Source: Cyanophora paradoxa CCMP329 (lineage: Eukaryota > Plantae > Glaucophyta). From it: 59,223 nucleotides of DNA. The position numbers were made by a program, and so were the translations under genes. The notes beneath the pieces were generated by a model, which was given only the letters and a program-made list of their open reading frames with translations, was not told where the DNA came from and made no database searches. The first letter of the stretch is position 1; the number at the start of each line of letters is the position of its first letter. Shown here in pieces: positions 1 through 26,239 of the stretch. The stretch covers positions 1 to 59,223 of the forward strand of contig QPMI01000213.1 of the NCBI GenBank assembly GCA_004431415.1, read 5' to 3'.

Positions 1-208
1 GCGTAGCCGCTAGCCCTAGTCTAGTGCTATCGAGCAGCTAGCTCTAGCACTCTCTGTATTCTGACTTAGCGCCGGGCGCGACTCCGTTTGGGGTACGCGA
101 TCCTGGACGGGTACACTTGTGAATAGACCACTTGTGCTCCCAGCTACAGCCCCAGCCCGTGCGTGACCGCACGGACGCTGCACCGGGTGGGAATCCTCTC
201 ATCCGACA
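1..208 (+). repeat. 5' LTR (partial, left end outside the window)
   Basis: Matches 18121-18330 except for two 1-bp homopolymer indels (GGGG vs GGGGG, CC vs CCC). Ends in ...CCGACA, where identity with the 3' copy stops. Confidence 0.95.
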
Positions 209-221
209 GGCGCCATCTGCT
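209..221 (+). promoter_or_regulatory. Position of the primer-binding site (non-canonical, no TGG)
   Basis: Sequence immediately 3' of the LTR end is GGCGCCATCTGCT. Called by position only. Confidence 0.35.
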
Positions 222-814
222 CACGGAGCCAGAACCCGATCATCAGCGACCCGTCATCAGCAACCGACCAGCTCGGCGACCGCGGCTCAGCCGGCGCGCA
301 GGTAGACCTCAGCAGAGGTCGTGGGTCGCTTCTCGCGCCCCGCTGCGCCGCTCCGGGCTGATCCGCAGTTGGCGACCGAACATTCTGGAAAGAACCAGAA
401 CTTAGTCCTGCGGATCCAGGAACGCGCGCGAATACCGAGGGATCCCCGTCCCGATCGGATCGTCGCCGTTTCCTGAGAGCTGCGTGCGAGCCCGTGGGAT
501 CATTCCTGATCGTCGCTAGTCACTCGCCGCGACGCCAGCCTCTCCGGCTGTTGCGATCGTGCTGGACAAGACGAAGAGCGATCGGATCGACGGCTGAGGG
601 TGCGCGCCGAGCTGTCTCCGGAATCGCCGCAGCCGAGCTAGTGAGCTTGCTCGCCGCTGCTGTGGACCACGACGGCTCGGATCTCGAGCGAGGCACATTC
701 TCTCACGGAAAAGCGTGGCATTACGTCGCCGCTTGACCTGAGAATGTCCTCGGGGACCGGAGCCTCCGCGGAGTTTCGTCGTCCGGGCCGCGCACAGGCC
801 GTGGCGCCGCCGAC

Positions 815-2290
815 ATGGACTCTATGAGCGGATCAAATGTTTTGCAATGGATCCAGAGCCTGCGAAGCTGCCGCCGGCAGCGATCAGCGCACGGTTCAGG
901 ACCACCTCCGCCAGTTCGAGAGCTGCGCGAGCATGAGCAAGACTTGCTCAGTGTCTCGCCGACTGCACACATTGAAGTGCAGAAGCGAACTGGTGGGCTC
1001 TTCTCGGCACGCAGATCACGGCACCCGTGCGCCAGAAATCTCGCTGTTCCAGAGCGCGAGCAGATCGACACTCGCGAGCTCGAGAAGCTGAAGGCGTACC
1101 GGGCCGAGCGTGCGCGCACGAGCACGGCGGACCGCGAGACGTCGCGATCCTCGAGACGCTCGACGAGAAGATCGCGCAAGCCGAGAGGGCTTGCAGCGGA
1201 CCGCCTCACGGTCACGTACACCGCGATCAGGCGCCGTCTCGAAGATGACGCCGAGATGCGAACCCTGACCGTACAAGGCGCTCCTCGACCTGCCGCACGT
1301 GGGCGAGGCGCCGGAGGCGTTCTATCGCCGCGTCTCGACTTGAGCATCATCCCGGAGTGCCGCGAGGCCACGAGACACCGCTTATGGCACTCATGCGCCA
1401 CGCGGCCAGATGCTCAAGCGCCGCACTCGCAATCAGTGCCGCGACTTCGAAGACTCCGAGATTTCGGACACCGATCGCGGCACATGATGACGAACTTCTC
1501 CACGGCTCGAAGATCTATGACGAGCTGTCCGCAGAGATCGCGGACCGCGAGATCACGGGACCTCTGCGGTCATCGACCTGGTAACCAAGCGCACCAATGA
1601 ACTGGGCGCCTGGACGTCGATATCTCCAAAGTCCCCGCTCGGCCCTAGTGCTGGGCTCGCGCGGGACGCCGCTGCAGGCGCCCACGGCTGCTCGCGCACG
1701 CCGCAGAGCGCGCCGCCGATCACGCACACGCCAGCTGTCCCCGTCGTCCCCTCGCGCTCGAACGCGGCGCCGGCGCGGGCACGCGCATCATGCTCGCGAC
1801 GACGGTGTCGGAAGCCAGATCGCAGAGCTTGAGGCAAACGCGTACGGGTGGGACGCGGACGACGCCGAGATCAGAACGCCGAGGTCATCTCGTTCCTGCA
1901 GCTCATTGCTCGGACGAGCCCTCGTCGTAGTCGCGCCTCTACCCGTCGGCGTCCGCACCGCCGCCCCGCCTTGACGACCCGTCTATCAGCAGAAGATCAA
2001 AGACTTCCTGAAGGCCGGGTCTCCCGAGAAGCCCCGCGGCCGTGCCACTTGCGGCGAGTCGCACTACTCGTTTGAGTGCCGACCAACCCGCGGCCTCTGC
2101 CCGATGGTCGCAATCAACCCGCCAAGCGCCGCGGGCCAACGGCGAGGCACCGGTGACCCGAAGCGCCGGTTCTACCCGCGCCGCAGGGTGGGAACGGCCG
2201 CTCGAGCCCCCGCCCCAGCAAGCTGCAGGGCCCCGGGCGTGCTACAACTGCGGCAAAACCGGCCACCTGGCCGCGTCCTGCCCGCCCAGG
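815..2290 (+). CDS. gag: Gag-like region ending in a CCHC zinc knuckle (frameshifted in this sequence)
   Basis: CYNCGKTGHLAASC (C-x2-C-x4-H-x4-C) at 2240-2281, preceded by helical/coiled-coil-like peptides spread over several frames. Start codon uncertain. Confidence 0.7.
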
Positions 2291-5200
2291 CGCAGACGCT
2301 CGAGCGCGGTCCGCCGCGCGCTTGCAGAACACGCCGCCGCCGCTGCAGCCCCGCCCGTGCGCCCGCGACCCGGCGCCCTGGCTGACCCAACGCCTTCACG
2401 ATCGCGCGCGCCATGCTCGACAGGCTGCCCGAAGCGGCGCCGCCGGCCCGTCGCGACTGCACTGCTTCCCGCGCCGACCGGCGCCACGGGTCGGGCCCAC
2501 GGCGGCCCCGGCGCCCGCCGAGCTTGGCAAGGAAAAGCACGTGTACCGTGTGCGCATCGTGCGCAGCGACGAGGCGTTGGTCGACGATACCTTCCGAGCC
2601 TTCACCGCAGCGGCCGCGCGCACGCCGCCGCGCTGCAGGACCCCGGGACGGCCCCCTCTCAACGCGGTCGCCGCAGCCGCCACCGCTTTCGCGATCGCAG
2701 TAGTGCAGCTGTCCGGGGAAAAGCCGCCCAGACCTGTGCCCCACGGGAGCCGAGAGGCCGGCCCCTGCGAGGCGCAGGACCTGTTGCCGACCCGCCCGGA
2801 GTCGGCCTGGACGAGGGGGAGAAGAAGGTCGCGTTCGACGCAGTGGACGCCGCCCTCGAGGAAATCGCACTCCTCTTGGCGGCCGCCCCGGACCCAACGA
2901 GGTCGAGGGCGCTGACGCAGCAGCGAAGGTCCCGCGCCGACCCGTGCCGACTTCTTTCCCGCCGACTCGCCGCGGCATCGTGGACGCCGCCCTTGATGAG
3001 GTCGCACTCCTCTTGGCGCCCCGGACCCAACGGAGGTCGAGGGCGCTGACGCAGAAGCGAAGGGTCCCGAGCCCGCGAGGAGCTCGCTCCCACCAAGTCG
3101 TCCCCGAGACCGCCGCCGCCGAGGCTCCGGCGGACCCCGCCGCCGCGTGGGCTGCTGCTGGGTACTCCTCGGGGCCGAGACGGTAGCGAGCTCGAGGTGA
3201 CCGACGACGGCGCCTCCCTCGCCGACGAGGACGCGACCGTAGCGTCTAAGGAGACCTGCGCCTCAACCGCGCTCGCCTCCTCAGCGCTAGCCCGGCCTAG
3301 ACCTCACTCACTTCGGAGCCGTTGAGTTAGAGCCGGTGAAGGGCCGCGAGCACGAGCTGGGCCCGTTCCTCTCTGGAACGTGGACGCGCACAAGCTGAAG
3401 GGCGCCGCGTCGGTCCCGCTCGACCGCGCGCGTTCCTGTACCCAGCGCCGTGCGAGACTCACTGCGCTGCACTGTGAGCGAGGGGCTGATCGAGGTCCGG
3501 GACGAGCAGTGGTATGCCACTGCGTTCCGCTGCCCGGCCCGCACCGCCAGACGCTCTCCTTCTTGCTTGCGGCGTTCTCTCAGCGCTCGCCACCGAGAGC
3601 ACGTACCTCGGCTCGCGGACCCTCCCCACTGCGTTCCTGCAGATGCTGGGGCATGACCCGCTGTCCCAGGACACGCTGGCTCACGCCTGGCCGACGCACT
3701 ATTATGAAATCATGAGCCTCACGCACCAGGCCTCTCGCGTCGCCGCGAAGTGGCCGGGGCCACGCGTGGCCGCACGCCGAGGGCCTCACGCCGAGGGTCG
3801 CCCCGCAGTCGAGCCCGACGCCCACAAGCTTACGAAGCTTGGGACGAGTGCGTCGCTACCGCCGGCTGGCTGGAGCCATACCGCCGCCATGGAGCATTGG
3901 CCAGCACTCGCCCGTGGCGGCCTCTCTCGAGCCGCACGAGATGACAGTGTCGGGCCGCCGCCAGCTAATCGAGCTGAGCGAGCTGTTGCCGGCACAGGAC
4001 CGCCTCGCTTGCGTGCGCCTCGACTGTTGCGGCTATTTCCTGCACCGCGTCGACTACGGTGCCCGGGCACCGCCGGCGCCGTCGAGAAGATCCTCGGCCG
4101 CTTCTTTAAGTTCGCCGAGCCGCTCATGGTGGACGCGCGGGTCGACGCCTATGGCTTCGCCCTGCTGGCCCTCGAGCACGCGATCCAGTGGAAGACCGTG
4201 GCTTGCATCGGCGCCGCGCCGTCCCCACGACGCCCACAAGAGCGCCGTTGCCCTGGCCGACGGGAACCCTCTTGTCCCTCGACTCGGAGTTCACGGAAGC
4301 CGTTCACTCGCTTGCCGTCCTGGCTGCCTCCGTTGAGGTTCCGATCCCGGGGCGGGCACGTCTCCGCTCGGATCGGGACGCCGAGGGATGGCTGCGGCAG
4401 CGCTCGCGGAGCGTCTGACTGCGTACCGCGACGGCCGTGCCCCCGCCTTCCCGGTCGTGAGCGAGGGCGAGTCCCGCACGGTTGAACGCGTTCCGGTGGA
4501 GCCCCGCGTCGCCGCCGCCCGCGTTCTGCACCTCCGGGACCTGCACTTGTGCGACACCTGGCTGCACTGGCCGCGCCTGCACGGGCAGAGCCTGGCACGT
4601 GGAGGGTCGGCCGCGTGCGCCGATCACGCGCACCACGCAGTTGCCCCTGCACGGCACGACGCGAGGCGGGCAGCTGCCCACGATCGTGCCTGAGGAGCTC
4701 TACGTGCTGAGCCAGCTCGGCCCGCGCCCGCCGCTCACCGCCCTGTGCGATGCAGCCTGGGCCCGCACGGTTCCCGGATCCGCCGGGCCGCGGAGCTGCT
4801 CCGGTACATCGAGGGGGCCAAGGCGGGCGACCGGGCCCACCTCGTCATTCTATTCCGTAGGCTGCTGAAGAAGCGGGCCGGTTTCAATGACGAGCTGTCA
4901 AGGACATGATCGCGCTCGTGGAGAAGTGGCGCACGGATGCAGGCAGCCGCACCCCCACTCCTCTCCACGACCTGCCCACCACGCCGAAGCCGGCGTCGGA
5001 CACGACGGCGCCTACACGGCGAAGGCCGTCAGCGCGACGATCAAGGAGGCTAAGGCCTGCCTGCCGCCGCGCCCGCCTGTGAAGGCGCTCTCGCCGAGGG
5101 ACCGCCAGCGCCGGCGCGGCCGGCGCCCGTTCCTGTCCCGCCGCCTGCACGACGGCGAAGCTCGTGACCTTGCACGCCGCGGCAACATGGCCGCCGCTTG

Positions 5201-11690: not shown

Positions 11691-12020
11691 CAGCATTGCT
11701 ATGCGCCTGCCGAACGGCCGCTCCGGCGCTGAACGGCCCGCTCGCATTGTTGTCGACACGGGCGCCCAGGGAACTGTAGTTCCCCAGGAAGTCCTCGACC
11801 GCCTGCCGCCCGACGAAGTCAATTACGTCGAGGGCCACACGATAGTCCGCGGTTTCATGGACCGGACAAAATTCGTTGTCGCCGCGCCGACGTAGTCTTC
11901 GTTCTGGGCTCGCTCCGCTTCTGCCGCCGCGTCTTCGTCGTCCCGCGCGGCGCCATGGGCGTTGAGCCGGACATTCTGCTCGGCCTGGACGCGATCCAGG
12001 CCGTCCACGGCCAGATCGAC
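11690..12020 (+). CDS. Retropepsin-type aspartic protease domain
   Basis: IVVDTGAQGTVV (DTG at 11755-11763) and downstream DILLGLDAI (~11970-11996, reached by a 1-bp shift near 11880). Confidence 0.88.
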
Positions 12021-12929
12021 ACGACGCTGTCCGGGTGGTGCCTCCGGGCCCGTGACCACCTGCACCGCGAAGTCGTCGTCCCTTTTCGGCTCCGGACCAG
12101 CTTGGGATCCTGGTCCGAGTCCTGGGACCAGTAAAGCTCCCCGTCGGAGAGGCCCTCGTCCCATGCACGCTCAATGGGCAGGGCCCGGCAACGCGTGAGT
12201 TGCCGCACCTCTACGTCGAGCCGTCGCCGGAGTCCCCGCAAGCCTTGGGCGTACTCTGCCCTTACCAGCTGCATAATCACCCGGGAGACAAAATGTTTCA
12301 CGTGCGGTTGTGCAATCCTGGCCGGCAGCCGGTAACCCTGCCGCTAGGATCGGTAGTAGCGGTCGCTTCGGCGGTCGCCCTACCGCCTGGTGATTTTGAG
12401 TACGAACCTGAGCAAATGCCTTGTAGTGCGAGTGCATTGACAGACCTCTTGATTCGCCGGCTGCGACGCCGCCCCGCGCACCGCCCTACGACGTCGACGA
12501 TATAGTCGTCACGTTTGGCGAGCTGCCCTTCGACACAGCCGACCGGCCGTTGCAGGACCTTGATGCTATGAGCATCATTAGCCTCGACGACGATGCTATG
12601 AGCACGTCGTCACGAAGCGCGTCCCCAACGCCGGCCCCGATCACAGGCCCCTCGGTCGACGAGTTCGTCGCCGCAGTCGAGGCAGTGTCCGTCCCCAGAG
12701 ACGCCACCCTGCGCTCGACCTTCCCCGGTCTCTCCGAAAAAGCGGAGCGCGACTTGCTCGATGCAGTCCGCGCCATGCGCGGCGACGTTACGGTCCGCAA
12801 GGCCGCACCGGTCGCCGACGCCGAGGCCCCACCCCAGAGTGTGGTCACAGCCTCGCTTTCGGCCCGGCCCGATGCCCCACCCCTACGACTGCAGCACCCG
12901 ACGCGAAGCCCGCTGAGGCACCGCGGCCG

Positions 12930-14400
12930 GTGCCTAATGCAGAGGAGGAGTGGCAAGAGCTGCTGAAGAAGATTCCTGAGCTCGGCTCTCACCCGTCAAT
13001 CACGACGGCGCAGAAAGCCGAACTTCACGCGCTCCTGCGGCGCTACAAGGATGTCTTCGCAGACAAGGTCGAGGCCAAAGAGGGCACCAGCAACCTGCTC
13101 TATTACGAGCACGTGATCAAACTCACGACTCGCCTTCCGGTGTTCACGCCTCCGCGGCGTATGAACCCGCACGCCGAGGAACACGCCCGCAAGGAAATTC
13201 AGAAACTCCTTGAGCTTGGGCTGATCGAGCCCTCCCAAGCGGCATATGGCTCGCCGGTAGTGCTGGCCCCCAAAAAGGACGGCACTTGGCGTTTCTGTGT
13301 CGACTATCGGAGGCTGAATCAGATCACCGAGCGGGACGTGTTTCCCCTACCCCGCATAGACGACCAGCTCGAGCGCCTCCGCGGCTCGATGGTCTTCTCG
13401 ACTGCTGACGCGACTGCCGGCTTCTGGCAGCTGCCTCTGCACCCCGGCTCCCGAGCCTACACTGCATTTGTGGTCCCCTGGGGTCACTTTCAGTGGAAGG
13501 TTACGCCGTTTGGGGTCACGAACGGGCCCGCGGCATTCTCCCGCGCGATCACTGCGATCCTGGCCCCTTGCTGACCACCTGCGTCGTCGCGTACATCGAC
13601 GATATCACGGTCTTCTCACCGTCCATCGATCAGCACCTTCTAGACTTGAAGGCGCTCTTCGAGACGATCTCTAAGGCGAACCTGCGCCTGAAGCCGTCGA
13701 AGTGCCGCTTCTGCGTGCCTGAAATCGACCTTCTCGGCCACCGCATCTCCGCCGAAGGGATCCGCCAGGACCCTGCGAAGACCAAGGTGATCACGGACTG
13801 GCAGACGCCGAAGAACGCGGACGAGCTCCGCTCGTTCCTCGGCCTCGCCGGCTACTACCGCCGCTTTGTCGAGAACTTCTCCAAAGTGGTGCACGCCATG
13901 CAGCGCCTTCTATTGAAGGACGCCGTCTGGAGTTGGCCAGAGGACGGCCCCGCCGACCGCGCCTTTAAGGAGCTGAAAGAACTCCTGGGCCGCGATATTA
14001 TATTGCGGTTCCCGGACTTCTCGAAGCCCTTCATTCTCCAGACGGACGCCAGCACCTACGCTATCGGCGCAATTCTGAGCCAGGCCGACGACAAAGGCGT
14101 CGAGCGGCCGCTCGCGTTCATCAGCCGCACGCTGCTGCCGGCCGAGATGAACTACTCCGCTACGGAGCTGGAGTGCCTCGCAGTAGTCTGGGCCATTAAG
14201 TATTGGCGCCACTATCTGCTGGGCGGCCCCCAGTTCCTGGTGCGGACCGACCACCACGCCCTCCAGTGGCTGAAGACGCTGGACCCGACGACGGGCCGCC
14301 TCGGTCGCTGGTCCCTGCTCTTGCAGGCCTACGACTTTGAGATCGTCTACCGCCCTGGCAAGCAGAACGGGGGTCCCGACGCGTGCTCGCGTCTCCCTAA
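12930..14400 (+). CDS. pol: Reverse transcriptase + RNase H (pol); one 1-bp deletion in the C-run at 13564-13567
   Basis: RT motifs KKDGTWRFCVDYRRLN, FPLPRID, GFWQ, PFGVTNGPAAF, YIDD (13592-13603), FLGLAGYYRRF. RNase H motifs LQTDAS, NYSATELECLA, TDH, DACSR. Confidence 0.97.
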
Positions 14401-15799
14401 GGACCACCCCGTCTGGCAGCCAGGCGGTGCAGACGGTTCCTCGTCCAAGCCCGCGGCCTACAAGGGCGCCGAAGGCTTCGGCATCCCGCAACATGCTGTA
14501 GGGGCTGAGCCTGAGGATCCCGACGTCCCGCTGGGCATCTTTAGGATGCAGCTGGGCCCGACCGAGCGGGCCCTGCGCCAGCTCGCCAACTCCGCCGGCT
14601 TCCGCGCGGAAGCCCCAGCCGAGGGTGGCCGAGCCGCTAGACGCCGAGCGCCCCGGGCGGCGCCTGCGAGCGCCCCCTCTTCCCCGCCGGGCCGCTCCTC
14701 TTATGCAGAGGAGGAGTCGCGGCCCCCTGTGCCAGCCAGTGCTCCTGAGGCCGAGCCCGACGCCGGCGCCCCTGAAGCGCCCGCGCCCGAGCCTGAGGGT
14801 GAGGCTGGCGGTGCTGCGGAAACCGATTCCGACGCCGAGCCCCCGCCGCCAGAGCGCGCGCCGCGACGCCTGCCCCGCGAGCTCGCCAAGCTTGCTGCGT
14901 CGGCTGGGTTCGCTGAGGCCAAGGCCTCCGCCTCGGCTACTGACGCCGCCACGCGCAAGCGAGCGCGGGCCGCCCCAGAGCGCTTCGCGCCTCCCGCGCC
15001 AGAGTCGGTCTCGCCGCCCCGAAACGACGAGAGCCGGGCCCGGCGCCCGCTGTCGAGGAGCGCGAGGCTCCCTCGGACGCGGAGATGCCCGACGCCCCTG
15101 AGGGCGACCTGGGCGCCCCGGCCGCGCTGCTAGAGGACGCTCACGCAGAGGCCGAGGCCTCGGGCGAGATCGATGACGAGTCGCTGCCGGAAGGGCCTGT
15201 CCCCTCCGACGCCTGCGACGCTGACGGCTTCCCCTCGCTCTTGCGGAGCGAGTCCCGAAGCGCTCGGAAACCGGGCCCCGTCGGTGGGGCGCCAAGGGAT
15301 TTGCCGAGCCGCGGCCCCTGCATCCCGACGCGCTCTTCCCTCGCGGCCCCGCCTTGAGGCGGCAGCCTCGAGATGAGTACAACACGCGCCACTGGCGCTC
15401 CCCGGTCGACCCCTCGGATCGGCCGGTGCCGATTCATATTGAGTGGGAGCCGGAGGACCCTGAGGGCGAGCCGCCTCCCGGGCCTCCGCGCCGACGCTCG
15501 CTCTCCCCGGAGACTGCTCGCCACCAGATCCGCGTTCGGCCGGTCCCCCGGACCCCAAGCCAGCGCCGCGGGCTCGAGGTCGCCCCTCTGCCCGCGGGCA
15601 GGCTTCCGACGACGCCGCCCCGCTCGAGCCTGAGACGGTCGCCGCCGAGGCCGCTGCCCCGCAGCGGTGGGTAGAACTCGACCCTAGAGGCCGGGACGTT
15701 CGCCCGCCGTGCAAGCCGGTCTTCGTGGATACCGTCCTCGACGCGTGGGCCTGCGGACCCTCGCCAGCCGTCGATGGGGCGCTCCCGACGCGCTGCGCC

Positions 15800-17384
15800 G
15801 TATGTTCCCGCCCGAGAAGCGCAAGCGTCTGCTCGCCGCTCAGAAGGAGGATTCCTTCTGCAAGAAGCTTCTCGCCTTCCACGCAGAGGGCGAGAATCCA
15901 ACTGTCTGTACCCGCGGCTCGAGGCGCGACGCAGATCCCTGCTCGCCCAGCTGCGCTCACTGCCTGCGGGCCAAGGAGCGCTTTGCACGCCTGGCCGGCG
16001 AGTTCAGCCTGGCCGACGACGGCGTCATCGAGCGCAACCCCTTGGTCCCTGCCGGCCGGTTCCTACCCGTCTTGCCGGACGCTTGGATCGACAGGGTGCT
16101 CTACGCCTATCACGAGGGCTGGGCCCATCGAGGCGCGCCCGTGATAGCCCGTCGGATCGCCCTGCGGTTCTGGTGGCCTGGCATGTACGCCTCCATCGCT
16201 CGCTTTGTGCGGTCGTGCCCGCACTGTCAGTTCGCGAAGGCCGCGAAGCCCCGCCGTACCGCCATTCAGGTGATACAGCCTTCGGGCAAGGGAGACCTGT
16301 GGCAGGTGGATATCTTCCACTTGGATATGCACGAAGACGGTTCGCGATACATCATCGCGTACGTCGACGCATACACCAAGTTCTGCTATATCTACCCGCT
16401 CTCCCGTATCTCCGGCGAGGCCTTGCTCGCCACCGCGATCGACTTCTATACGCACGAGGGCGTGCCCGCGCGCATCCTGACGGACCGCGGGTCCCAACTC
16501 GTTGGGGGCGCGTGGAACGCGTTCTTCAAGGAGAAGGGTACCCGGTTCGTGCACGCGGCCGCCTACCACCACGCCTCGAACGGCGGCGCCGAGCGCCTGG
16601 GCGGAGTCTACAAGACTCTCGCTTACGCCATGTGCCGTGAGCACAAGCGGCCGCTCTCTGACTGGCCTCTTTACAACGCCGATATCGTTCTCGCGTTGCG
16701 GACCACCGTGCACTCCGCCACCGGGTTCTCCCCGATGGTCTTGCACCGCGGTTCTGAAGTGCACCTGCCCTGCGAAGTGCGCTTCGGAGCCGGCGTCCGC
16801 TTCGTGAACCCCGACCACACGCACCCGGCTGATTACCTTCTCGCGATGACGCGAGCTGCCGCGAGCGCCGACGCTGCCTCGCGCGAGTACCGTCGGTTCT
16901 ATCGGAACCGCATGGTTGCTCGCACCGGCAACCCGCCTCATCGTCGCCGCTTTGAGGTTGGCGACAAGGTATTGTGCTGGATGGGCGAACACAACAAAGG
17001 GCTGTACAATTCGTGGGTCGGGCCCTACACTGTGACTGGTGTTAACCCTGGCGGTTACACCTACACGGTCAAGGGGTCGGCTAAGCCCTACTCCGCCAAG
17101 GACGATGCCCGTACCCGTCCTCTGCGTGAGACTGTTGCCCACATCGACTGCATGCTTCCGTTCCGCACGCGTCTCTCCGAGTCTCAAGCCCGTCCCCGCG
17201 TTGGTCGGCCTCGGAAGACTGCTGTGAACGCCGACGAGCCGGCGATCGACCCCGCACTCGCGGACTCGCCCGCTCAAGAACAAAATCCACCTCTCGCCCC
17301 TGACGTCGACGCCGAGGGCCCGAGCGGGCTGCCGAGGGCGACGAGGTTGAGATGGATGACGCGATTTTGGTCGACGACCTGTGA
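15800..17384 (+). CDS. Integrase (HHCC zinc finger, D,D35E core, GPY/F domain, no chromodomain)
   Basis: YHEGWAHRG...CPHC; WQVDIF / LTDRG / NGGAER with exactly 35 residues between the second D and the E; FEVGDKVL...WVGPYTV. Probable acidic tail (EGDEVEMDDAILVDDL) in a shifted frame ending at TGA 17382-17384. Confidence 0.95.
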
Positions 17385-18062
17385 GAAGCTCGTCCCATTG
17401 CTGTTCCCTTTGCGATCGCTGTGCTTGCGCCGTGGGGCAGATTTCTTTGCCCGCTTTGCCTCAGCCCTGGCTTCCGAGGTGGGACGTGGGTTGGCTGGTG
17501 GCCAATCACGGGGCGCCATCTGGGCCTTTCGTTCCATTTTCTGGGATCTGGGCCCGTCGCTCGTGGAGAGTGGCTGGGTGTAGGCCTCCCGGGTGCCTGC
17601 GGGTCCGTGAGGGGCTCGAGGTTGCTGGCTGGGGGTGCACTCAGTCGTGCCCTATCCTTTCGTTGGGCCTGATGGGCGGCCCGGATACCTCCTCGCTGGT
17701 TTCTTCCCGAGGCGGTGAAACTTCCCATCCGTGCCACTCTCCTTCGGCTCTCGCCGTTGGAGCGAGTTTGGGCCAGCTTTTGGGGGGTTTCGAGTTCTAT
17801 GCTTTTCCATCTTTCGAGCTTGGCCTGGGGTTGCCTAGGTACATGCACTATGCTGGTATCGGCTCCTATTTCGGTCGCGAGCTATGCTACCTGGCATATC
17901 TGGTTGCTGACGACGGACATTCTACTTCGAGAGGAGTTCACTCGCCGCCGCCCTGTCGCTGCCGTGGTTGGTGCACACCCCGGCGGTGGGGTGGACGCCC
18001 CGTCGAGCATGCAGACTCGACGTTCGGCTTGGCGCGGTCCGGTGCGAGGACGCACCGTATGC

Positions 18063-18074
18063 AGAGTGAGGAGT
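18063..18074 (+). promoter_or_regulatory. Polypurine tract
   Basis: AGAGTGAGGAGT lies directly before TGTCG, the inverted complement of the LTR end CGACA. Confidence 0.6.
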
Positions 18075-18330
18075 TGTCGCGTGCCGCGATTCCCTCGGAT
18101 TAGGCTAGCCGGCAGTCTATGCGTAGCCGCTAGCCCTAGTCTAGTGCTATCGAGCAGCTAGCTCTAGCACTCTCTGTATTCTGACTTAGCGCCGGGCGCG
18201 ACTCCGTTTGGGGGTACGCGATCCCTGGACGGGTACACTTGTGAATAGACCACTTGTGCTCCCAGCTACAGCCCCAGCCCGTGCGTGACCGCACGGACGC
18301 TGCACCGGGTGGGAATCCTCTCATCCGACA
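18075..18330 (+). repeat. 3' LTR (~256 bp, TGTCG...CGACA)
   Basis: 5-bp terminal inverted repeat with TG...CA ends; 18121-18330 matches 1-208. The left boundary is inferred from the PPT and inverted terminus. Confidence 0.88.
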
Positions 18331-18401
18331 ATGTGGAGATTAAACATCTCTATGATTTTTCGCAAGAAATCCATGATGCTCTCTCTCTTAATGCGAGATA
18401 A
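18331..18401 (+). pseudogene. Probable 3' end of a viral gene interrupted by the retrotransposon
   Basis: Open frame ...VEIKHLYDFSQEIHDALSLNAR* whose TAA (18399-18401) directly abuts the stop of the convergent ORF at 18402. Confidence 0.45.
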
Positions 18402-19136: not shown

Positions 19137-19164
19137 TGTATATTTATTAGAAGCAGAGATTATT

Positions 19165-19947
19165 TTATAAACCTCTCTTATATCGCATCAGTTTATTCGA
19201 ATGAACACCACTCTTGACCTCTTTGGGGGCTTCCTCTTTCTGTGGAGGTGGTAATTCGTCCTCTTTCTTTTTGGGCTTCCTGTGGAACCGAGGAAATGGG
19301 AAATCTTTGACCAGATCCGCTTTATCAACATAATAGTTCACCGAATAATTTGCAGAAGACCACACAATATATTGGTAGGAGTGCACATACTCCTCAAACA
19401 TCTTATAGAAATCTTCCTTGTTTCGCATGATATTGTATTCCTCCTCGATTGCTTCGAGTTCTTTGCGATTAGCAGCACTCAGGAACACAGCATAATCCGA
19501 ATTTACTCGAATTGTTGAAGAAACCTTACGCAATTTCTGAGTTATGCAGACACAGGACACCATCGCATGGCGCCCCCTCGAATACACAGAGCCAATGATT
19601 TTATCACGAGTTAGGTCTATTAACTCATTATCTATTAAATCATCAAGGACAATACACATTTGATTCACAGGTTCCCCTTTTTCGATTTTCTCCTGCCTTT
19701 CATCCAGTAATTTGGAAATGTAAGCAGCATCCCATTTCCCCAGTTGCAAAGTTGCTACTTTATCCCAGAAATGATTGAAGGACGTCCCACTCACTACAAG
19801 AACAGTATCAATCTTTTTCGCATCATGCAGCTGTTTCAACCAATATTTCACACATTCTGACTTACCTGTTGCAGACTTTCCTATGAAAAGAGCACGAAAT
19901 GGTGGGGTTATCATTTCGCCTGCATTAAACTCTTCCAAATCGTTCAT
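19165..19947 (-). CDS. A32-like (FtsK/HerA) genome packaging ATPase
   Basis: Walker A GKSATGKS, Walker B CIVLDD, arginine finger SRGRH, ITQ motif, IRVNSDY. Confidence 0.95.
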   Translation of the reverse strand: MNDLEEFNAGEMITPPFRALFIGKSATGKSECVKYWLKQLHDAKKIDTVLVVSGTSFNHFWDKVATLQLGKWDAAYISKLLDERQEKIEKGEPVNQMCIVLDDLIDNELIDLTRDKIIGSVYSRGRHAMVSCVCITQKLRKVSSTIRVNSDYAVFLSAANRKELEAIEEEYNIMRNKEDFYKMFEEYVHSYQYIVWSSANYSVNYYVDKADLVKDFPFPRFHRKPKKKEDELPPPQKEEAPKEVKSGVHSNKLMRYKRGL

Positions 19948-20009
19948 GGCTTTGTAGATCTTTCTTATTAAAGATAGATAAAAATAACGAAACGTTACTG
20001 ATCATGGTT

Positions 20010-21383
20010 TTACAGATTAATTCGTCGGAGCCCATCTTTGTCAACAATAATGAAACTGTGCATGAGAGCACGAACATTAACTGTGATTGTCTGGTCAGAA
20101 GGCATGTATAGAGTGAGGAAAGAGGAGGAGGAGTTCGTGAGATCAACATAGCCAGACTGGGCAATGTTGCGAATCGCTTTCTCTCCATCAACACAGAATG
20201 GTAGACCACTGAGGACATATTTGTCTGCAACCTTGTCCATATTTGAGCACTTGAAGGCATCCGCAATTAATTCGGCACCTTTGAGGAGAGGGATGGGCTC
20301 AGTAGCATAGAGACGTTGACCATTAATTTCAACAGTGAAAGTAATGTCTTTTGAGTTAGCATGCGTTTTTAGGACACTGTGGGAACCATTGAAACCATCA
20401 ATACCTGCGGCATCACGAACTGAAACAAGAAGACCATAGACAAGCCCAGAGATCTGTGACAGGTTAATACGATTTGGTTGAGCATTGCCTTTTGCAGCAA
20501 AATTGACACTGTCTACGAAACCAATATCCAGAGCAGGAATAGCCATACCAGTGGTCTTCACCTTCTCAATGACAGTAGCAAACAGTTCATCAGAAACATT
20601 AATAGCATGCATGTAAAGACGAGGAGAAGTGACTTTAATTTCGGGGGTTGTTGTTGCACCAATTCCAAAAGTGGTGATTTGTTGACCAACATGGGCAAGA
20701 GTAGCATTAGCAGTAGCACCAAGTCCATCATCCTCTGTCTTATCAGCAGCTGTTCCACCAACAACAGGAAGAGCACGACCACCATAAGAAGTCTCAACAT
20801 AACCCTTTCCAGCATCCTTGAACCAGACAGTTACCACCATTTCTCCTGAGAGAGCACCAAGAGGTAGGTAGTGGTTTAGCCATGGGACTGGGATTTCAGT
20901 GAAAAATGACCCACCAAGTCGGTTGGTTCCATGGGCAGGGATACCATGAACCATTCCCATTGAACGCTTCTTCTTGGCGAGTTGATCCTCACTGTAATAG
21001 ATAAGAGGGAAATGAGCAAGGAAATCAGAAGGCACATGGAAGGTGTAAGATCCATAGGTAATTTCAAGTCGAGAGACAAGAGCACCAACTGGGCGAACGT
21101 ATCCATTGCGAACAAGGTCGGTATCACCAGCAAAAGTGACAGCTGGAAGGTCAAACGCAAGTTCGAGTTTTCCACAGAAATTGTAGCGAGGGAGCTTGAA
21201 AGAAATGCGATTTCCAGCATTATTCTCGAAAGTGTTGCTTGGGTTCACAACAACAAGAACTGGCTTCGACTTGGATTCAAGACCAAGCATGAGAGAGTTG
21301 TCCAAGAAGAACGCCTTGGCTTCTTCCGGGGTTGTTAGAGCTTCTTTCAGAGAAAGACGTTGGAGGGTCGAAGTAATATCCAT
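20010..21383 (-). CDS. Major capsid protein, double jelly-roll (457 aa from ATG at 21383)
   Basis: Size, beta-rich pattern and position between ATPase and penton. Motifs resembling NCLDV/PLV MCPs: GNRISFKLPR, LEITYG, YLPLGAL..EMVVTVWF, SGYVDLT, VNVRALMHSFIIVDKDG. Confidence 0.85.
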   Translation of the reverse strand: MDITSTLQRLSLKEALTTPEEAKAFFLDNSLMLGLESKSKPVLVVVNPSNTFENNAGNRISFKLPRYNFCGKLELAFDLPAVTFAGDTDLVRNGYVRPVGALVSRLEITYGSYTFHVPSDFLAHFPLIYYSEDQLAKKKRSMGMVHGIPAHGTNRLGGSFFTEIPVPWLNHYLPLGALSGEMVVTVWFKDAGKGYVETSYGGRALPVVGGTAADKTEDDGLGATANATLAHVGQQITTFGIGATTTPEIKVTSPRLYMHAINVSDELFATVIEKVKTTGMAIPALDIGFVDSVNFAAKGNAQPNRINLSQISGLVYGLLVSVRDAAGIDGFNGSHSVLKTHANSKDITFTVEINGQRLYATEPIPLLKGAELIADAFKCSNMDKVADKYVLSGLPFCVDGEKAIRNIAQSGYVDLTNSSSSFLTLYMPSDQTITVNVRALMHSFIIVDKDGLRRINL

Positions 21384-21437
21384 GATTATCTCTTTTATTA
21401 TACTGCAACATAAAAAATTCACCAATGATCCTTGATT

Positions 21438-22448
21438 TTACGCAAAATTCGCAATAACCGGATAAGATGGATGTGTTTCCGCCATTCTCCTCTTGAAGTA
21501 TTCGTACACAGGATCACCAGCAGGTTCATCACCATATCGAATTTCGAAGGTGAGGTGGACAGGTTGACCCTCGAAATCAATTGGTTCATTAACTGCATTC
21601 ACAATATCAACCGAAAATGTGGAAAGTCCCAGATTCTTGTTATAGTATTTATAAATCGGATGGGCTTCTGTCGAATTATAAACGACATGCTCACCATAAT
21701 CTTTATCTGGAACAACGATTTTGTGGAAATATCCAGTGAGGAGACCATCACCACATTGAACCAGATCACCCAACTCCTTTACTCTCACAAACAGAACACT
21801 ATCCCTGGTCTTTTCAGGTTCAAATGAAGATATGATACCATGCACCATCGACCCAGTAAAGATACCATCAGTCAGAGTATTATAAACTTGTGATTGGATT
21901 GGGGTGTTACCATATCTCCCAGGATCAAGACCAAGCAGTCGAGCAGAACTCAAAAACCTCTGAATCTGCGCCTGGGTTGGGTTTATTGCAGTTGAGAAAG
22001 CCAGGTAAAACGGTATGGTGGAATGGAATATTACTCGTTTCAGTGTATCATCCCATTTACAGCGAATTGCTACTGGTGGCTCTCTCAATGCAAGTTTGGA
22101 GTTAATTACATTCACCAGTTGTTGGTGGTTTTGAATGGGTGTGCTGCGACTTATCACAATGTGTTTCCATGATTCATAATCAGCAGCAGGTCGATCAGTT
22201 GGAATACCAGTGCTTCCTGCACCAGAATAATATTCAGACCAATAAAGGTAGATTGCATTATCAATTGTCACATCTCCTACTTTGGTTTCACCACTCACCA
22301 TGGGAATGCTGTTATAAAATTCTGCTGAAACCAGTCTTACTGCTCTCACAAATTCATAGGTGCTGGGGAGGCGAGCAATAAAACTCGAAGTAGGTCCATC
22401 TCCCGAAATTGTATTGAAAGAGCTCACTTCGATGTAATCCACAGGCAT
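21438..22448 (-). CDS. Minor capsid protein (penton, single jelly-roll with insertion), paralogue 1
   Basis: N-terminal YIEVSS...SSFIARLP..YEFVRAVRLVSAEFYNS and C-terminal LSTFSVDIVN...PIDFEG..VHLTFEI, the pattern typical of PLV/NCLDV pentons. Confidence 0.82.
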   Translation of the reverse strand: MPVDYIEVSSFNTISGDGPTSSFIARLPSTYEFVRAVRLVSAEFYNSIPMVSGETKVGDVTIDNAIYLYWSEYYSGAGSTGIPTDRPAADYESWKHIVISRSTPIQNHQQLVNVINSKLALREPPVAIRCKWDDTLKRVIFHSTIPFYLAFSTAINPTQAQIQRFLSSARLLGLDPGRYGNTPIQSQVYNTLTDGIFTGSMVHGIISSFEPEKTRDSVLFVRVKELGDLVQCGDGLLTGYFHKIVVPDKDYGEHVVYNSTEAHPIYKYYNKNLGLSTFSVDIVNAVNEPIDFEGQPVHLTFEIRYGDEPAGDPVYEYFKRRMAETHPSYPVIANFA

Positions 22449-22476
22449 CTTCTTTTATCTATAAACATATATTAAA

Positions 22477-23408
22477 ATGATTCGGCTGGTCAATATAGAT
22501 AGCAGAGACCGATCAGATGGACAAATAGAAAACTCCTACAAAGTTTCACTCACAACCCCAGTGACCAAACCAAGAGAATGTCGAGTTTTGTATGCAGAGA
22601 TCCCCAACAGCATCTATAATTCCATTGGAACAGACCACCTTCTTGTCAGATTCTTCTACCAAGGCATCTCTGAAACCAAACAGGTCTTCCTTCTCCCAAG
22701 TGGTTATATTAATCAAGGGCATTTCGGGGTCACCAGTCCATATAATTATGGTCTGAATTTCACATTTACTGGGAGCAACAATCTCACATATGCATTCAAG
22801 GTCTACTACAATCCTACTTCCTACAAATTGGAGTTTTACAGTAATGTTCAATTCGAGATGGTAGCATCTACACAGAGATTGGGTAAACTTCTTGGGGTTA
22901 GTTCTGTGGAGTGGGTCGCTTCAATTGAGCAAACCTACGATTTCCCAGAGTCTGCAAGGTCTTTATATGCCCCGAGAATTTCCTCTATTTTGCAGGAATC
23001 CCAATCACCCCAAACCATCCCCAATGGGGAATCACATTCACAGGATATGAATTCGAGGCATCTCGCTTAAACTACAAGTTAGAAGCATCCAAGATGACAG
23101 ACATGAATGCAGAACAGTATTTATACATGCACATTAAAGAACTCTCCCCATTTGCTACAAACCACAATATTGTTCCAAGATCACAACCACAGAATCAAGG
23201 GGCGATTCTCAGATTGCAATTGAGTAAAGATATTGGACAGTATGTTTATCACAGTGGAGAGCACAGTGAATACATAAAAATAACCGATCGAAACCTTGTG
23301 ATTAGAGAGTTAACAGTTGAGTTTCGAGATTATTATGGTGATCTTGTAGATATGAATGGGATTGACAACTCATTCCAGTTGGAGTTCTTGGCTATTGGTA
23401 ATGATTAA
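22477..23408 (+). CDS. Minor capsid protein (penton) paralogue 2, ~310 aa, split by a 1-bp deletion in the C-run at 22970-22973
   Basis: N-terminal LVNIDSRDR...YAEIPNS and C-terminal YLYMHIKEL...LTVEFRDYYGDLVDMNGIDNSFQLEF. Adding one C joins 22477-23070 and 23094-23408 through an open frame (PENFLYFAGIP...LEASKMTD). Confidence 0.85.
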
Positions 23409-23658
23409 ACCGATCCTGATAGAAGAACTCCCCATCTGTCTCGAAAATATTAAGAAGGGGACTCTTAGCATCCTCTGTATACCATCTGCGAATTGTCTTA
23501 TCCCATTTAGCACCATTCTTTTTCAAGAATCTACAAAGGGTTGTTCTCCTTGTAATTCGCAATCCCATCTCTTGAAAGATCTCATAATGATCTTGCATTC
23601 TATTCACAATCAAGATGTAAGTTCCATGGAAATTGTGATATTGCTGGTTAATCGGCAT
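23392..23658 (-). CDS. Small viral protein (88 aa) with a DUF5710-like motif
   Basis: FLKKNGAKWDKTIRRWY matches the K..GA(R/K)WD....WY pattern; overlaps penton 2 tail-to-tail by 17 bp. Confidence 0.55.
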   Translation of the reverse strand: MPINQQYHNFHGTYILIVNRMQDHYEIFQEMGLRITRRTTLCRFLKKNGAKWDKTIRRWYTEDAKSPLLNIFETDGEFFYQDRFNHYQ

Positions 23659-23864
23659 GTTTCCTTTACAGCATGATGGGAAATCGTTTGTCAATTTTTG
23701 GCGAAACGAGAGTATCTCATGAGATAGATGCTCGAATAACAGGTGTGTTTTCAGGGTTGGAGAAATCGGAGAAACATAGAGTATTGCGATTTCCGAGTTA
23801 GTTGACACTGAGAAATTCAGAATTTCAGATGGTCTTACTGAAAATGGTCAGATAATCGGGTGTG

Positions 23865-24300
23865 ATACCTATTTAATTGACTGTGACGCCTCTTTAATTG
23901 ACTGTGACGCCTGTGACGCCTGTGACGCCTACTTTCAAACTTTTTAAAATTTTCAAAAATGACAGACTTCTGAAAACAGCCGTCACAGCCGTCACAGGCG
24001 TCACACCCAATTAAAAATGGAATCTCTTTCTCTTACTGAGATTTTCGAAAATATATTCTTGTCTTACTGAAATCCGTCTTGTGACACCTCTGACACCTAC
24101 AAAACACTATCCATTAATCAACCTTTTTGAAAATGCGAAGTTGTCTTACTGGAAATGGTCTGCAATTTCGCTGTGACACCTAATTTAATTGAGTGTGACG
24201 CCTGTGACGCCTGTGACACCTACTTTCAAACTTTTTAAAATTTTCAAAAATGACAGACTTCTGAAAACAGGCGTCACAGCCGTCACAGGCGTCACAGACA
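23865..24300. repeat. Two cassettes of 3x TGTGACRCC + ~50 bp AT-rich spacer + 3x inverted copy
   Basis: Cassette A: 23903-23929 and 23979-24005. Cassette B: 24194-24220 and 24270-24296. Period 291 bp; the spacers are identical. Confidence 0.92.
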
Positions 24301-24417
24301 TTCCACCCCTCTTACTGACTTTCTCAAAAACAAAACTATCTCTTACTGAATATCATTTGAATACTACCTGTCACACTTGATCTCAATTATTCTGTTTTAT
24401 AGAACATATGCAATCTA

Positions 24418-24665
24418 ATCGATTGTTCAATTGGAGACCATGCAACTCTGTGACAAGTTTTAGGTGCAAAAATGTAAATCCGCAATCCATCGATTGTTTA
24501 ATTGGACGTGATGCAGTTCCGATATATTCCAATAGAAAATCCCGCAATATAATCGATTGTTTAATTGGAGATAATGCAACTCTGTGACAGTTTTTGGGTG
24601 CAAAAATGCAAATCAGCAATCTCATCGATTGTTCAATTGGACACAATGCAACTCTGTGACACTTT
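24418..24665. repeat. Four-copy tandem repeat (63-72 bp units) starting ATCGATTGTTYAATTGGA
   Basis: Copies start at 24418, 24489, 24552 and 24624; three contain ATGCAACTCTGTGACA. Confidence 0.9.
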
Positions 24666-24978
24666 TTGCGTTTTTCGATACAGAATGGGCGGTGGTCTAC
24701 TTCAATACAAGAGAGATATATCGAGTTTTTGCGAATTTATGCAATTTAATCGCGATTATATCGATCTTTAAGTAGTTTAATGCAAATTAATCGCAGATTT
24801 GTATGTAATCGACAAAGAACATAATCAATCGATATAAGATCAATTGATTCAATCGTAAATATGCATAAAGTTAAACGCGTTTTTCATTTTTAATACAAAG
24901 TTTGCATTAATTTATACAAAGTTTGCATAAAAAGTTAAAGAAATTAATCGATAAATACGTATTTTAGTATTAATTTTG

Positions 24979-25073
24979 ACACATATGTATAAACTTATTT
25001 AAATCCTGAGTGAATCGAGATCGCGAAGCGATCGAGATGAACGAGGGATTTAAATAAGTTTATACATATGTGT
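24979..25073 (+). repeat. 95-nt hairpin: 28-bp perfect stem, tandem G.A zone, GCGAAGC loop
   Basis: 24979-25006 is the exact reverse complement of 25046-25073; inner GATCGC-GAA-GCGATC at 25019-25033. Confidence 0.95.
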
Positions 25074-25239
25074 GGGCGCCCGTAGTAGCCCCGTACGCGT
25101 GTGACTGTGGCTGCAGACTGCAGTGACTCTCAGAGTCTGCACTGACTCTGCAGCTGATCATGACCAATAGAGTACCGTGGCCCATGGGGCCGAGAGGCCC
25201 TCACCCGGGGAGTACCCCTCCCCCCAAAAAGGCAATCAA

Positions 25240-25915
25240 AAATCAAAGATCTAGAAGTCGCAGGTAATCGCCGCGGGCCCGCGGCGCAAGATATCTTTGA
25301 TTTGTGATTACTTCGTTATCTTCTAATATTTTTTGTGTATGATTCCGTTCCTCGTGTATATCCTACCCTTGCTTCTCAGTCCACTTCTCTTTCTTTGCCG
25401 CCCCCTCCTGGTTCAGCCCCGTCATGATCATCTCTAGATCTGTTAACGTTCCCTGTCAGTTGCAATACTGGCCTGCGTTTCGCCCCTCCTCTTTTCCTAC
25501 CGCTTACGAATCCGACTAGTACTTTGAATCCCTCAGGGCCTCTCCTCTGCTTTTATAATTAGCATCGATATCTGCGGTACCGCGACTTAGTCTTCATCCG
25601 TCGTTTGTTTTGCCTCTTCCACATGTACAGCCGGCGCCTCGATCTAGTTCACGTGCACAGCCATCCGCTTCCTCTCCTCCGCCCGTTACTGTTGCTACTT
25701 CGTCTCTTGTCTCTGGCTCTGCTGTTGCTAGTTGTAGTGCACCTGCTGTGTCCTTTAGTTCTACTGCTACTTATTCTCGAGCTCGTGCTCGTTCTCCTTA
25801 TCTCTTGCGTTCTCGTGATCGTGTCCCTTGTCGCCGAGTCGTGCCACGGTGATCCCTAGGCCCCTATGCATATGTCTTGCGATATCGATTGCCTGCGACT
25901 TCTTTGATTTGTGAT
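25240..25915. repeat. Imperfect inverted repeat pair bounding ~580 bp, each arm with a central palindrome
   Basis: 25253-25270 vs reverse complement of 25886-25903 (17/18); 25285-25291 vs 25875-25881; perfect palindrome 25269-25286. Confidence 0.7.
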
Positions 25916-26239
25916 GCTTTGTTGATTTTTAATATGACTAGTACTAGTACTACCTACGGGGGGTTCGCCCTTCCGTAGTCTCTCGAAAAATTATGATTAC
26001 TAGCTAGGCATGGATGGCATGGGGAGCTCGAGGGGGCTGGCATGGAGGGAGGCCTGCCGCGGCCGGGGGCCCGGGTACGGGCCGGGGGGAAGGAACCCGA
26101 AGCGGCGGCGGAGAAGAGGGGAAGGGGAGGGGAGGGGAGGGGGGGCAGACGACGCGGATGAGCGGCAGGGGGAGGAGGAGAGGGCCGGGGGAGGAGGAAC
26201 TCCGGAGGAGATCTCGAGAGGAGGGGAACCGAATTTGAC

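Follow-up and report, generated by a model that had tools for sequence, protein, structure and literature searches.

The contig QPMI01000213.1 of the glaucophyte Cyanophora paradoxa CCMP329 places a Ty3/Gypsy retrotransposon directly beside the DNA of an endogenous virus. This arrangement raises two questions: does the element lie within the virus, and was it steered there? The window analysed here is the whole stretch of 59,223 nucleotides, and its features are collected in Table 1. A copy of a young, giant Ty3/Gypsy family abuts an endogenous Polinton-like virus (PLV) exactly, and we consider it moderately likely that this copy arrived through ordinary integration, without targeting, in one of about 16 viral copies, breaking one gene and leaving that copy too long to package.

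Table 1. Features of the element, the virus and the adjoining repeat in the window
Feature	Position	Strand	Remarks
5′ LTR	1..208	+	clipped by window start, without the first 46 of 256 bp; 208/210 aligned columns identical
Candidate primer-binding site	209..226	+	GGCGCC..., lacks one base of the customary TGG start
ORF1, ~3,800 aa	744..12134	+	Gag with CCHC knuckle 2234-2284; aspartic protease ~11730-12131; many one-base gaps
pol	12056..17583	+	RT 13269-13747, RNase H 14015-14332, integrase zinc finger and core 16075-16569 (Pfam)
Candidate -1 frameshift signal into pol	12080..12121	+	C CCT TTT in ORF1 frame, then stem-loop; weak
Polypurine tract	18063..18073	+	10/11 purines
3′ LTR, 256 bp	18075..18330	+	TGTCG...CGACA
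Putative C-terminal 22 codons of interrupted viral gene	18333..18401	+	no family match
Viral ORF, 244 aa	18402..19136	-	no family match
A32-type genome-packaging ATPase, 260 aa	19165..19947	-	Pfam Pox_A32 E 2.5e-10, 40.7 bits vs cut-off 22.8
Double jelly-roll major capsid protein, 457 aa	20010..21383	-	Atlas 0.98 to Capsid_N/Capsid_NCLDV clusters
336-aa ORF, candidate minor capsid protein	21438..22448	-	no family match
Second candidate minor capsid-type gene, split in window	22477..23408	+	weak likeness to 336-aa ORF (E 0.01)
Short ORF	23392..23847	-	weak DUF5710 motif, E 0.002, under cut-off
Non-coding terminal region	23850..24978	.	two 113-nt copies, each self-inverted (23893-24005, 24184-24296); fold z -9.7
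Terminal hairpin, 95 nt	24979..25073	+	28 perfect pairs, one T.G, GCGAAGC loop
Host-side repeat, 51% GC	25074..25990	.	high-copy right end; not viral

The junction between element and virus

AT-rich DNA begins straight after the last base of the 3′ LTR at 18330 (...CCGACA), and the GC content steps from 0.61 in the LTR to 0.41 across 18331-25073; both the position and the change in composition asserted by an earlier sequence-only reading are seen. The next 71 bp (18331-18401) hold 22 codons in one forward frame followed by a TAA at 18399-18401, which adjoins the stop (18402-18404) of a convergent viral ORF, again as first described. It is plausible from the sequence that these 71 bp represent the end of a broken viral gene. 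The 22-codon tail has no Pfam or PHROG match; when its frame is followed leftward across the junction, 49 codons are open, 27 of them within the LTR. An exact DNA pattern taken from the viral bases next to the LTR had no matches in metagenomes.

Both sides of the 18330/18331 join are multi-copy, and no contig crosses the join among the short-read contig matches listed, which cover 4 of 24 runs. An assembly chimera of two repeats is nevertheless very improbable. False assembly joins usually arise in shared sequence, but here the two sides share none, and the break falls exactly on the last LTR base, at a precise TG...CA end.

Because the 3′ LTR starts at 18075, the window opens after the first 46 bases of the 5′ LTR, and the left flank lies outside it together with any target-site duplication and the front of the putatively broken gene. 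A short-read contig of the internal region ends at 18103 in both DNA runs (X1 and X9). Aligned with the 3′ LTR, the 208 bases of the 5′ LTR in the window show no substitutions and two one-base gaps, one in a G run and one in a C run. These gaps are probably sequencing errors because this end of the window carries about 1% deletion-type error. The two homopolymer indels had been read as the mark of a very recent insertion, but they match the local error and date nothing by themselves.

Placement of the element within the virus is quite likely, although this is seen from the 3′ side only. The two could instead be neighbours, if a later deletion or LTR-LTR recombination took the left part of the virus or if the assembler joined the left half from another copy. 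The start of the window inside the 5′ LTR is compatible with this, as are a gradient of frame switches and an excess of missing bases, which together resemble a contig end with sparse coverage where a repeat has collapsed. Its length also takes the element beyond the ~15-kb inserts of the published C. paradoxa long-read assembly (PMC6704402), although the window may stem from another assembly. The reading is unlikely, however: the 3′ join is exact at the CA, the adjacent viral genes are open, and a collapsed left half leaves the 3′ junction unaltered.

A giant Gypsy element

The element (1-18330) has the Ty3/Gypsy order of protease (11734), reverse transcriptase (RT, 13269), RNase H (14015) and integrase (16075) in Pfam matches, and a Gag with a CCHC knuckle lies upstream of pol. 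In the ranking of PDB matches to the RT-RNase H region, Ty3 chains come first (E 1e-41) and the next entries follow at 1e-17. The integrase is of the rve type rather than a tyrosine recombinase, which separates the element from Ngaro, and no chromodomain was found in the 85 frames scanned (Pfam, E 0.01), which separates it from chromoviruses. The 3′ end of pol has an uncertain position at 17.3-17.6 kb. The candidate frameshift stem-loop has a z of -1.63, with an equally good fold in 12 of 200 shuffles. Element proteins match C. paradoxa gene models on 10 contigs, with a best identity of 100%.

Between Gag and protease, ORF1 contains about 3,000 aa without a known family, including an Arg/Ser-rich tract near 9200-9800. 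Of the 3,082 residues in gene model P0013, 2,921 match exactly, in runs spread over 744 to about 10580, and gene model P0010 spans 5753-12131 and shares the ORF1 stop. One search of proteins of 435-2,000 aa, with a single 248-aa piece of the insert as query, returned seven matches, all in C. paradoxa. Relative to P0013, each 1.5 kb holds 14-22 frame switches at the start but only 2 near 9-10.5 kb, and 66 of the 82 are missing bases; given this gradient and the predominance of missing bases, element decay was rejected as the source of the frameshifts. Several nested elements were likewise rejected as the origin of the 18 kb, given a single collinear reading path, mirrored in the gene models of other copies.

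The giant size is shared with planarian Burro and plant Ogre elements, and Burro also has an ORF1 of 4,900-5,100 aa in which a long insert separates Gag from the protease (PMC6431247, accessible portion). The Cyanophora insert differs in lacking a recognised domain, and the LTRs are short at 256 bp. This giant Gypsy family of C. paradoxa is apparently undescribed so far.

The virus and its terminal hairpin

The virus block (18331-25073) comprises 6,743 bp at 41% GC with one end in the window, compared with PLV genomes of 14-40 kb bounded by terminal inverted repeats. On the strength of its double jelly-roll capsid and A32 ATPase genes, this partial sequence likely belongs to a PLV. The capsid model (pLDDT 64, pTM 0.71) matches iridovirus and PBCV-1 capsids in Foldseek at E ~1e-17 and reaches 2e-20 in BFVD, while the Sputnik capsid ranks 50th, beneath NCLDV capsids. 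A single-sequence fold of the capsid reaches a pLDDT of only 32, and a PDB sequence search with a two-sequence capsid alignment gave chance matches only. Only six capsid relatives, including a doubtful one, occur in a set of 1.84 billion representatives; P0017 (collagen, 1,206 aa) was excluded from the alignment as a doubtful match. The viral contigs and metagenomes searched contained no loci related to the capsid or the ATPase.

Its position and motif layout make the 336-aa ORF a likely candidate for a minor capsid protein. The split of the second candidate is probably an assembly error because short-read contigs (X1, X9) carry one extra base near 22969. Pfam searches of the visible 6.7 kb detected no integrase, replication gene or maturation protease. 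The description of the locus as a Gypsy element of a young family beside an endogenous capsid-encoding virus in a GC-rich eukaryote is supported in each of these parts.

The viral terminus is 25073, where the short-read piece X18 stops with a different flank. The virus had been drawn as far as 25980, but the end of this short-read contig rules out 25074-25980 as viral DNA and assigns it to a separate repeat. Farther along the window, two of the 109 frames right of 26000 have Pfam matches, one to a weak RING and one to a kinesin. The non-coding region inside the terminus, which also holds three repeats of ~72-78 nt at 24410-24693, is probably the right terminal inverted repeat.

The terminal hairpin has a fold z of -10.8, unequalled in 200 shuffles, and carries three tandem 5′-GA/GA-3′ mismatches. 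It sits on the strand that has its 3′ end at the terminus, which is the geometry of a self-priming end. Its arm, as an exact DNA pattern, had no matches in viral contigs, and the six Rfam matches all fall far under gathering scores. Integration and replication of the virus likely proceed via its terminal region, and the 3′-terminal hairpin could prime DNA synthesis. By analogy with parvoviruses, it is tentatively proposed that the end of this virus family is built to act as single-stranded DNA, in which the GCGAAGC mini-hairpin and three tandem sheared G.A pairs may position the 3′-OH for priming genome copying.

Terminal palindromes in such viruses are already known. Halocafeteria virophages and PLV subtype 4, likewise integrated and capsid-encoding, also terminate in a palindrome, for which hairpin-primed replication has been proposed and accidental annealing left open (bioRxiv 10.64898/2026.07.28.741278, accessible portion). 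Their palindrome measures 52 nt, whereas that of Cyanophora measures 95 nt, and one of its strands combines a GCGAAGC loop with three tandem G.A mismatches, although the bioRxiv supplement may show similar features. The accessible portion of the literature on such viruses yielded no description of a terminal design combining this loop with tandem G.A pairs.

Copy number, targeting and known nests

Both the element and the virus are multi-copy. Contig depth in X1 is 80-93 for single-copy flank, 1,385-1,446 for the virus (~16x) and 2,364 for the element (~27x), and the element copies in this run show no difference over 360 bp. The ratios in X9 differ (virus 34-46x, element 20-46x), probably because of GC bias. 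The chance that at least one of 28 element copies lies in viral DNA is 0.43 if viral DNA makes up 2% of the genome and 0.57 if it makes up 3%, a share estimated from 156 elements of 14-20 kb over 99.94 Mb. One nested copy is within chance expectation and therefore gives no support for targeting.

The sequence-only reading had raised the possibility that the family targets endogenous viruses. In a fuller form, the oversized ORF1 would steer integration into the viruses or their silenced chromatin, and the element would disable or ride them. The ~3,000 aa of ORF1 without known function could serve such a role, and there is a precedent in type 1 Ngaro elements, 91% of which lie in virophages with a preference seemingly set by ORF1 (PMC8547959, accessible portion). 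This reading is distinctly improbable, given a single case within chance, the lack of a detected chromodomain and the poor cargo that an 18.3-kb passenger within a gene would make. Furthermore, the RT domain PF00078 occurs in only 4 of the 156 catalogued glaucophyte viral elements (column count, Table S6, PMC12220804, accessible portion), a count that may miss RTs far from the capsid gene or past contig ends, whereas Ngaro-like targeting of ~27 copies predicts many more. These 156 elements come from the same host group and may include the present locus; the accessible part of that source (Tables S6, S11 and S12) lists 139 with the PF04665 ATPase, 85 with an rve integrase, none with a tyrosine recombinase and none with a virophage major capsid protein (MCP).

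Under untargeted insertion, the preferred reading, the integrase would have inserted the Gypsy element within the virus, whose left side is off the window, and would have interrupted one viral gene. The insertion may have been tolerated because the host can dispense with viral DNA, which is redundant and probably silenced; in C. paradoxa, methylation marks repeats and genes derived from viruses (PMC12344493). Packaging of the interrupted copy would be lost because 18.3 kb is the length of a small PLV.

The locus had also been presented as a new LTR-class counterpart of Ngaro, but LTR-type nests are already in print. According to the accessible portions of these sources, a Ty3/Gypsy element is embedded in a PLV of Hydrurus foetidus (PMC10120064), a Copia element lies in a PLV of Guillardia theta, and RT elements flanked by direct repeats occur in the PLVs of cryptophytes, where there are many, and of ochrophytes (PMC12220804). 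The idea that such elements either immobilise the virus or use it as a shuttle, offered as new, has likewise been published in both versions (PMC12220804). These published cases share with the probable nest in Cyanophora a GC-rich LTR-type retroelement that interrupts a gene of an AT-rich endogenous PLV; the Cyanophora element differs in its length of 18.3 kb versus ~4-9.5 kb and in its glaucophyte host. Ngaro elements in the EMALE virophages of Cafeteria show the same three-level nesting, with a retrotransposon inside a DNA virus that is itself integrated in its host (PMC8547959), but they use a tyrosine recombinase, measure 6-7 kb and have a preference measured on 80 copies, whereas Cyanophora offers a DDE integrase and one case. 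The viruses that carry Ngaro are virophages, a label that may not apply to the Cyanophora virus.

Nesting of retroelements in PLVs is already known; as a nest, the present locus would add to that pattern a glaucophyte case with an unusually long passenger. If the family does target viruses, retrotransposons would be a route by which hosts lose putative antiviral elements. The more useful side findings are a giant Gypsy family that encodes 3,000 uncharacterised residues and a viral end hairpin with a G.A mismatch pattern. This pattern bears on the open question of how replication starts in PLVs that lack a protein-primed polymerase. If the proposed priming role is true, it would provide sequence-level evidence of a double-jelly-roll integrating virus that replicates from a self-priming hairpin rather than from a protein primer.

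Junction of the retroelement and the endogenous virus

The window consists of three compositional blocks plus one stretch of 51% GC (Table). The sequence-only reading was largely right about this arrangement, while its boundaries needed correction. In the viral genes (18331-23850) the observed/expected CpG ratio is 0.55; it reaches 1.27 in the terminal region of the virus and 1.18 in DNA of the host and the retroelement.

Features of the window, with positions on the forward strand
Feature	Positions	Strand	Remarks
Element interior	209-18074		69% GC
Purine run	18063-18073		upstream of 3′ LTR start
Virus block	18331-25073		41% GC
A32 ATPase	19165-19947	-	Pfam
Non-coding viral terminal region	23850-24978		internal repeats
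Two 113-nt copies	23893-24300		each an inverted repeat of short 9-nt units, z -9.7
Three 72-78-nt repeats	24410-24693
Terminal hairpin	24979-25073		fold z -10.8
Intermediate stretch right of virus	25074-25990		51% GC
Small hairpin, then short A run	25954-25978		right end of 51% GC repeat
Host part	25991-59223		64% GC
Host exon	27132-27548	-	weak RING finger match
Host exon	55373-55786	-	kinesin motor match

The giant Ty3/Gypsy element stops on the last base of its long terminal repeat (LTR) at 18330, and AT-rich viral DNA follows directly, as first read. No sequence is common to both sides of the join. To its right, a 22-codon frame has a stop that abuts the stop of the neighboring viral gene. 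These 71 bp had been read as the C-terminus of a convergent viral gene; the frame and abutting stops are confirmed, and an interrupted gene is compatible with them. The join, seen on one side, fits integrase-mediated insertion into a viral gene, and nested insertion of the element in the virus is likely. Among the matches listed, no short-read contig or loose end lies at 18330/18331.

One precedent for such nesting is a gypsy element, TED, in a baculovirus. A Polinton-like virus (PLV) of Hydrurus likewise holds a Ty3/Gypsy element (PMC10120064), other PLVs contain Copia and direct-repeat-flanked reverse transcriptase (RT) elements, for which immobilizing and shuttling roles are already proposed (PMC12220804), and Halocafeteria viruses carry inserted LINEs and MULEs (10.64898/2026.07.28.741278). 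The reading of the nest as a new LTR-class counterpart of Ngaro is thus not supported, and its novelty is low.

The proposal that the element targets endogenous viruses is unsupported. With 28 copies, one or more would be nested by chance with a computed probability of 0.25, 0.43, or 0.57 if viral DNA makes up 1, 2, or 3% of the genome; this share is an estimate based on 156 elements, taken to be 14-20 kb each, in a genome of 99.94 Mb. By our column count in the supplement of the catalogue of these 156 glaucophyte elements, which names an example from C. paradoxa, four carry an RT domain; RTs distant from the capsid gene could escape this count (PMC12220804). Ngaro retrotransposons, the original comparison, lie in viral DNA in 91% of type 1 cases (PMC8547959), and similar targeting would give far more RT-bearing elements than these four. 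No chromodomain was found in a Pfam scan of the element's frames. Methylation covers repeats and virus-derived genes in C. paradoxa (PMC12344493), which would agree with tolerance of insertions in viral DNA.

Age and coding capacity of the retroelement

Positions 1-208 align with 18121-18330 with two one-base gaps, both in homopolymer runs, and no substitutions. The 3′ LTR spans 256 bp with inverted ends, from TGTCG at 18075 to CGACA. The repeat unit extends beyond the 208 bases visible at the left end, and the window therefore begins inside the 5′ LTR, without left flank. Short-read contigs of the interior break off at 18103 in both DNA runs (X1, X9), as expected if words shared between the LTRs begin at about 18074-18075. 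Relative to P0013, a C. paradoxa gene model matching ORF1 (the Gag-to-protease frame), the frame switches 14-22 times per 1.5 kb where the window begins, a rate that drops to 2 at 9-10.5 kb; missing bases make up 66 of the 82 switches, and false introns in the model cause some of them. Such a gradient reflects read error where a contig end is thinly covered, which probably explains the two LTR gaps. The count of LTR differences holds for 208 bases and by itself gives no date for the insertion. A better sign of the family's youth is a 360-bp element contig without any difference at about 27 times single-copy depth (X1). Because copies are so many and near-identical, the two LTRs need not belong together, the 5′ LTR perhaps coming from another insertion.

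Pfam matches on the + strand comprise a CCHC knuckle (2234), a weak aspartic protease (11734), RT, RNase H, and integrase in Gypsy order; the minus strand has none in 41 frames. Among solved structures, Ty3 is closest to the RT-RNase H piece. The 9.5 kb from knuckle to protease lack a Pfam match. On the + strand, a codon model follows a single path across 700-17400 that meets one stop, whereas three stretches of host DNA used as controls show 5-12 stops per 1.5 kb. This result is soft, because the model's training was on pol and it is able to avoid stops by changing frame. One search with a 248-aa piece of the knuckle-protease region returned seven proteins, all C. paradoxa gene models, two with 100% identity across 98% of the query. 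Ten contigs carry these models and cluster members, one possibly being the present locus.

P0013 (3,082 aa) is collinear with the window, starting at the ATG (744) and reaching about 10580; 2,921 of its residues fall in exact-match runs. A second model, P0010, spans 5753-12131, including the protease, and has the same stop as ORF1. Since together they cover it up to that stop, ORF1 encodes about 3,800 aa. Two gene models share the stop with ORF1. Some 3,000 aa within ORF1 (2300-11700) are without known family, with a splicing-factor-like Arg/Ser-rich tract near 9200-9800. Between protease and pol, a candidate signal (12080-12121) suggests -1 ribosomal frameshifting into pol: it combines a slippery heptamer that lies in frame with ORF1 (12080-12086), a stem-loop downstream of it, and an open -1 frame. 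The folding of the stem-loop falls short of significance, with 12 of 200 shuffles folding as well. The layout resembles planarian Burro elements (PMC6431247). A literature search, judged by titles, yielded no prior account of this element, and the novelty of the giant ORF1 is moderate.

Viral genes, copies, and flanking repeat

The viral module is PLV-like, with PLV membership provisional on the visible part; the left end, and any integrase and polymerase genes, would lie outside the window. For the product of 20010-21383 (-), 7,996 scored candidates yielded a single relative (a gene model of C. paradoxa, 59%) and 1.84 billion representatives yielded six. Atlas groups it with Capsid_N/Capsid_NCLDV clusters at 0.98, with a recognition value under the usual range. 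Its structural model, built from an 8-sequence alignment (pLDDT 64, pTM 0.71), matches iridovirus and PBCV-1 capsids (E about 1e-17) and predicted viral capsids (E 2e-20), identifying a predicted double jelly roll capsid. Two other ORFs probably encode minor capsid proteins.

Copy number is roughly 16 in X1 (single-contig depth 1,385-1,446 over 80-93, depth being unreliable as copy number) and 34-46 in X9, again rough because single-copy depth varies from 18 to 42 with GC. Short-read contigs (18968-19262, 21071-21075) include diverged subfamilies, with capsid-gene pieces about 89% alike, compensating indels, and other sequence beyond the 336-aa ORF at 21438. There is also a second type of capsid (59%) and an ATPase (85%).

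The 51% GC repeat bordering the virus is single-copy in its interior at contig level (depth 88-93, X1). The right end is very high-copy: at about 25915-25990 the bin depth is near 12,000. This end is also seen in X15, a run guessed to be RNA. The weak sub-terminal inverted repeats of the 51% GC repeat may resemble those of Helentron-type elements. Another contig, with single-copy depth (104 in X1, 48 in X9), joins the viral terminus and next 8 bases (25047-25081) to the repeat end at 25915; another viral copy may therefore adjoin the same repeat family, possibly because the virus prefers such a target or because the locus is duplicated. The terminus also has other flanks (X18, loose ends of X1).

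The viral terminal hairpin

The viral terminus is 25073, rather than 25980 as first read. One low-depth contig of X18, a run labelled organism B, matches 24837-25073 and then diverges; X1 has a loose end at 24979, the mirror position; and single-copy contigs of X1 and X9 (25046-25360) hold only 28 viral letters, fewer than the 31 required for a bridge. The 113-nt copies and 72-78-nt repeats are candidate origin or protein-binding sites.

The hairpin contains 28 perfect pairs and one T.G, followed by three 5′-GA/GA-3′ mismatches in tandem, each set among short stems, and is closed by a GCGAAGC loop. The tandem form accounts for six of seven mismatches (uniform expectation 3e-7, calculated after the pattern was noticed). 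In DNA, such G.A tandems are stable. The GCGAAGC mini-hairpin is described as exceptionally stable, nuclease-resistant, and present at single-stranded origins (PMC13037366). Folding energies of the two strands are near equal (-32.9 vs -30.8 kcal/mol), and the + strand preference rests on these motifs, not on computed energy. The hairpin could alternatively serve as an integrase or resolvase substrate, as end protection, or as a packaging signal.

Literature searches, including portions of PMC11788076 and PMC11296320, yielded no account of a terminal hairpin with a GCGAAGC loop and tandem G.A mismatches; the novelty of this end is moderate. A 2026 preprint describes terminal palindromes with a hairpin-priming model and leaves an accidental origin open (10.64898/2026.07.28.741278). 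In the present virus, the arrangement of the mismatches speaks for selection acting on a single-stranded structure. Since the + strand carries the stabilized form and has its 3′ end at this terminus, folding would place a 3′-OH ready for inward copying.
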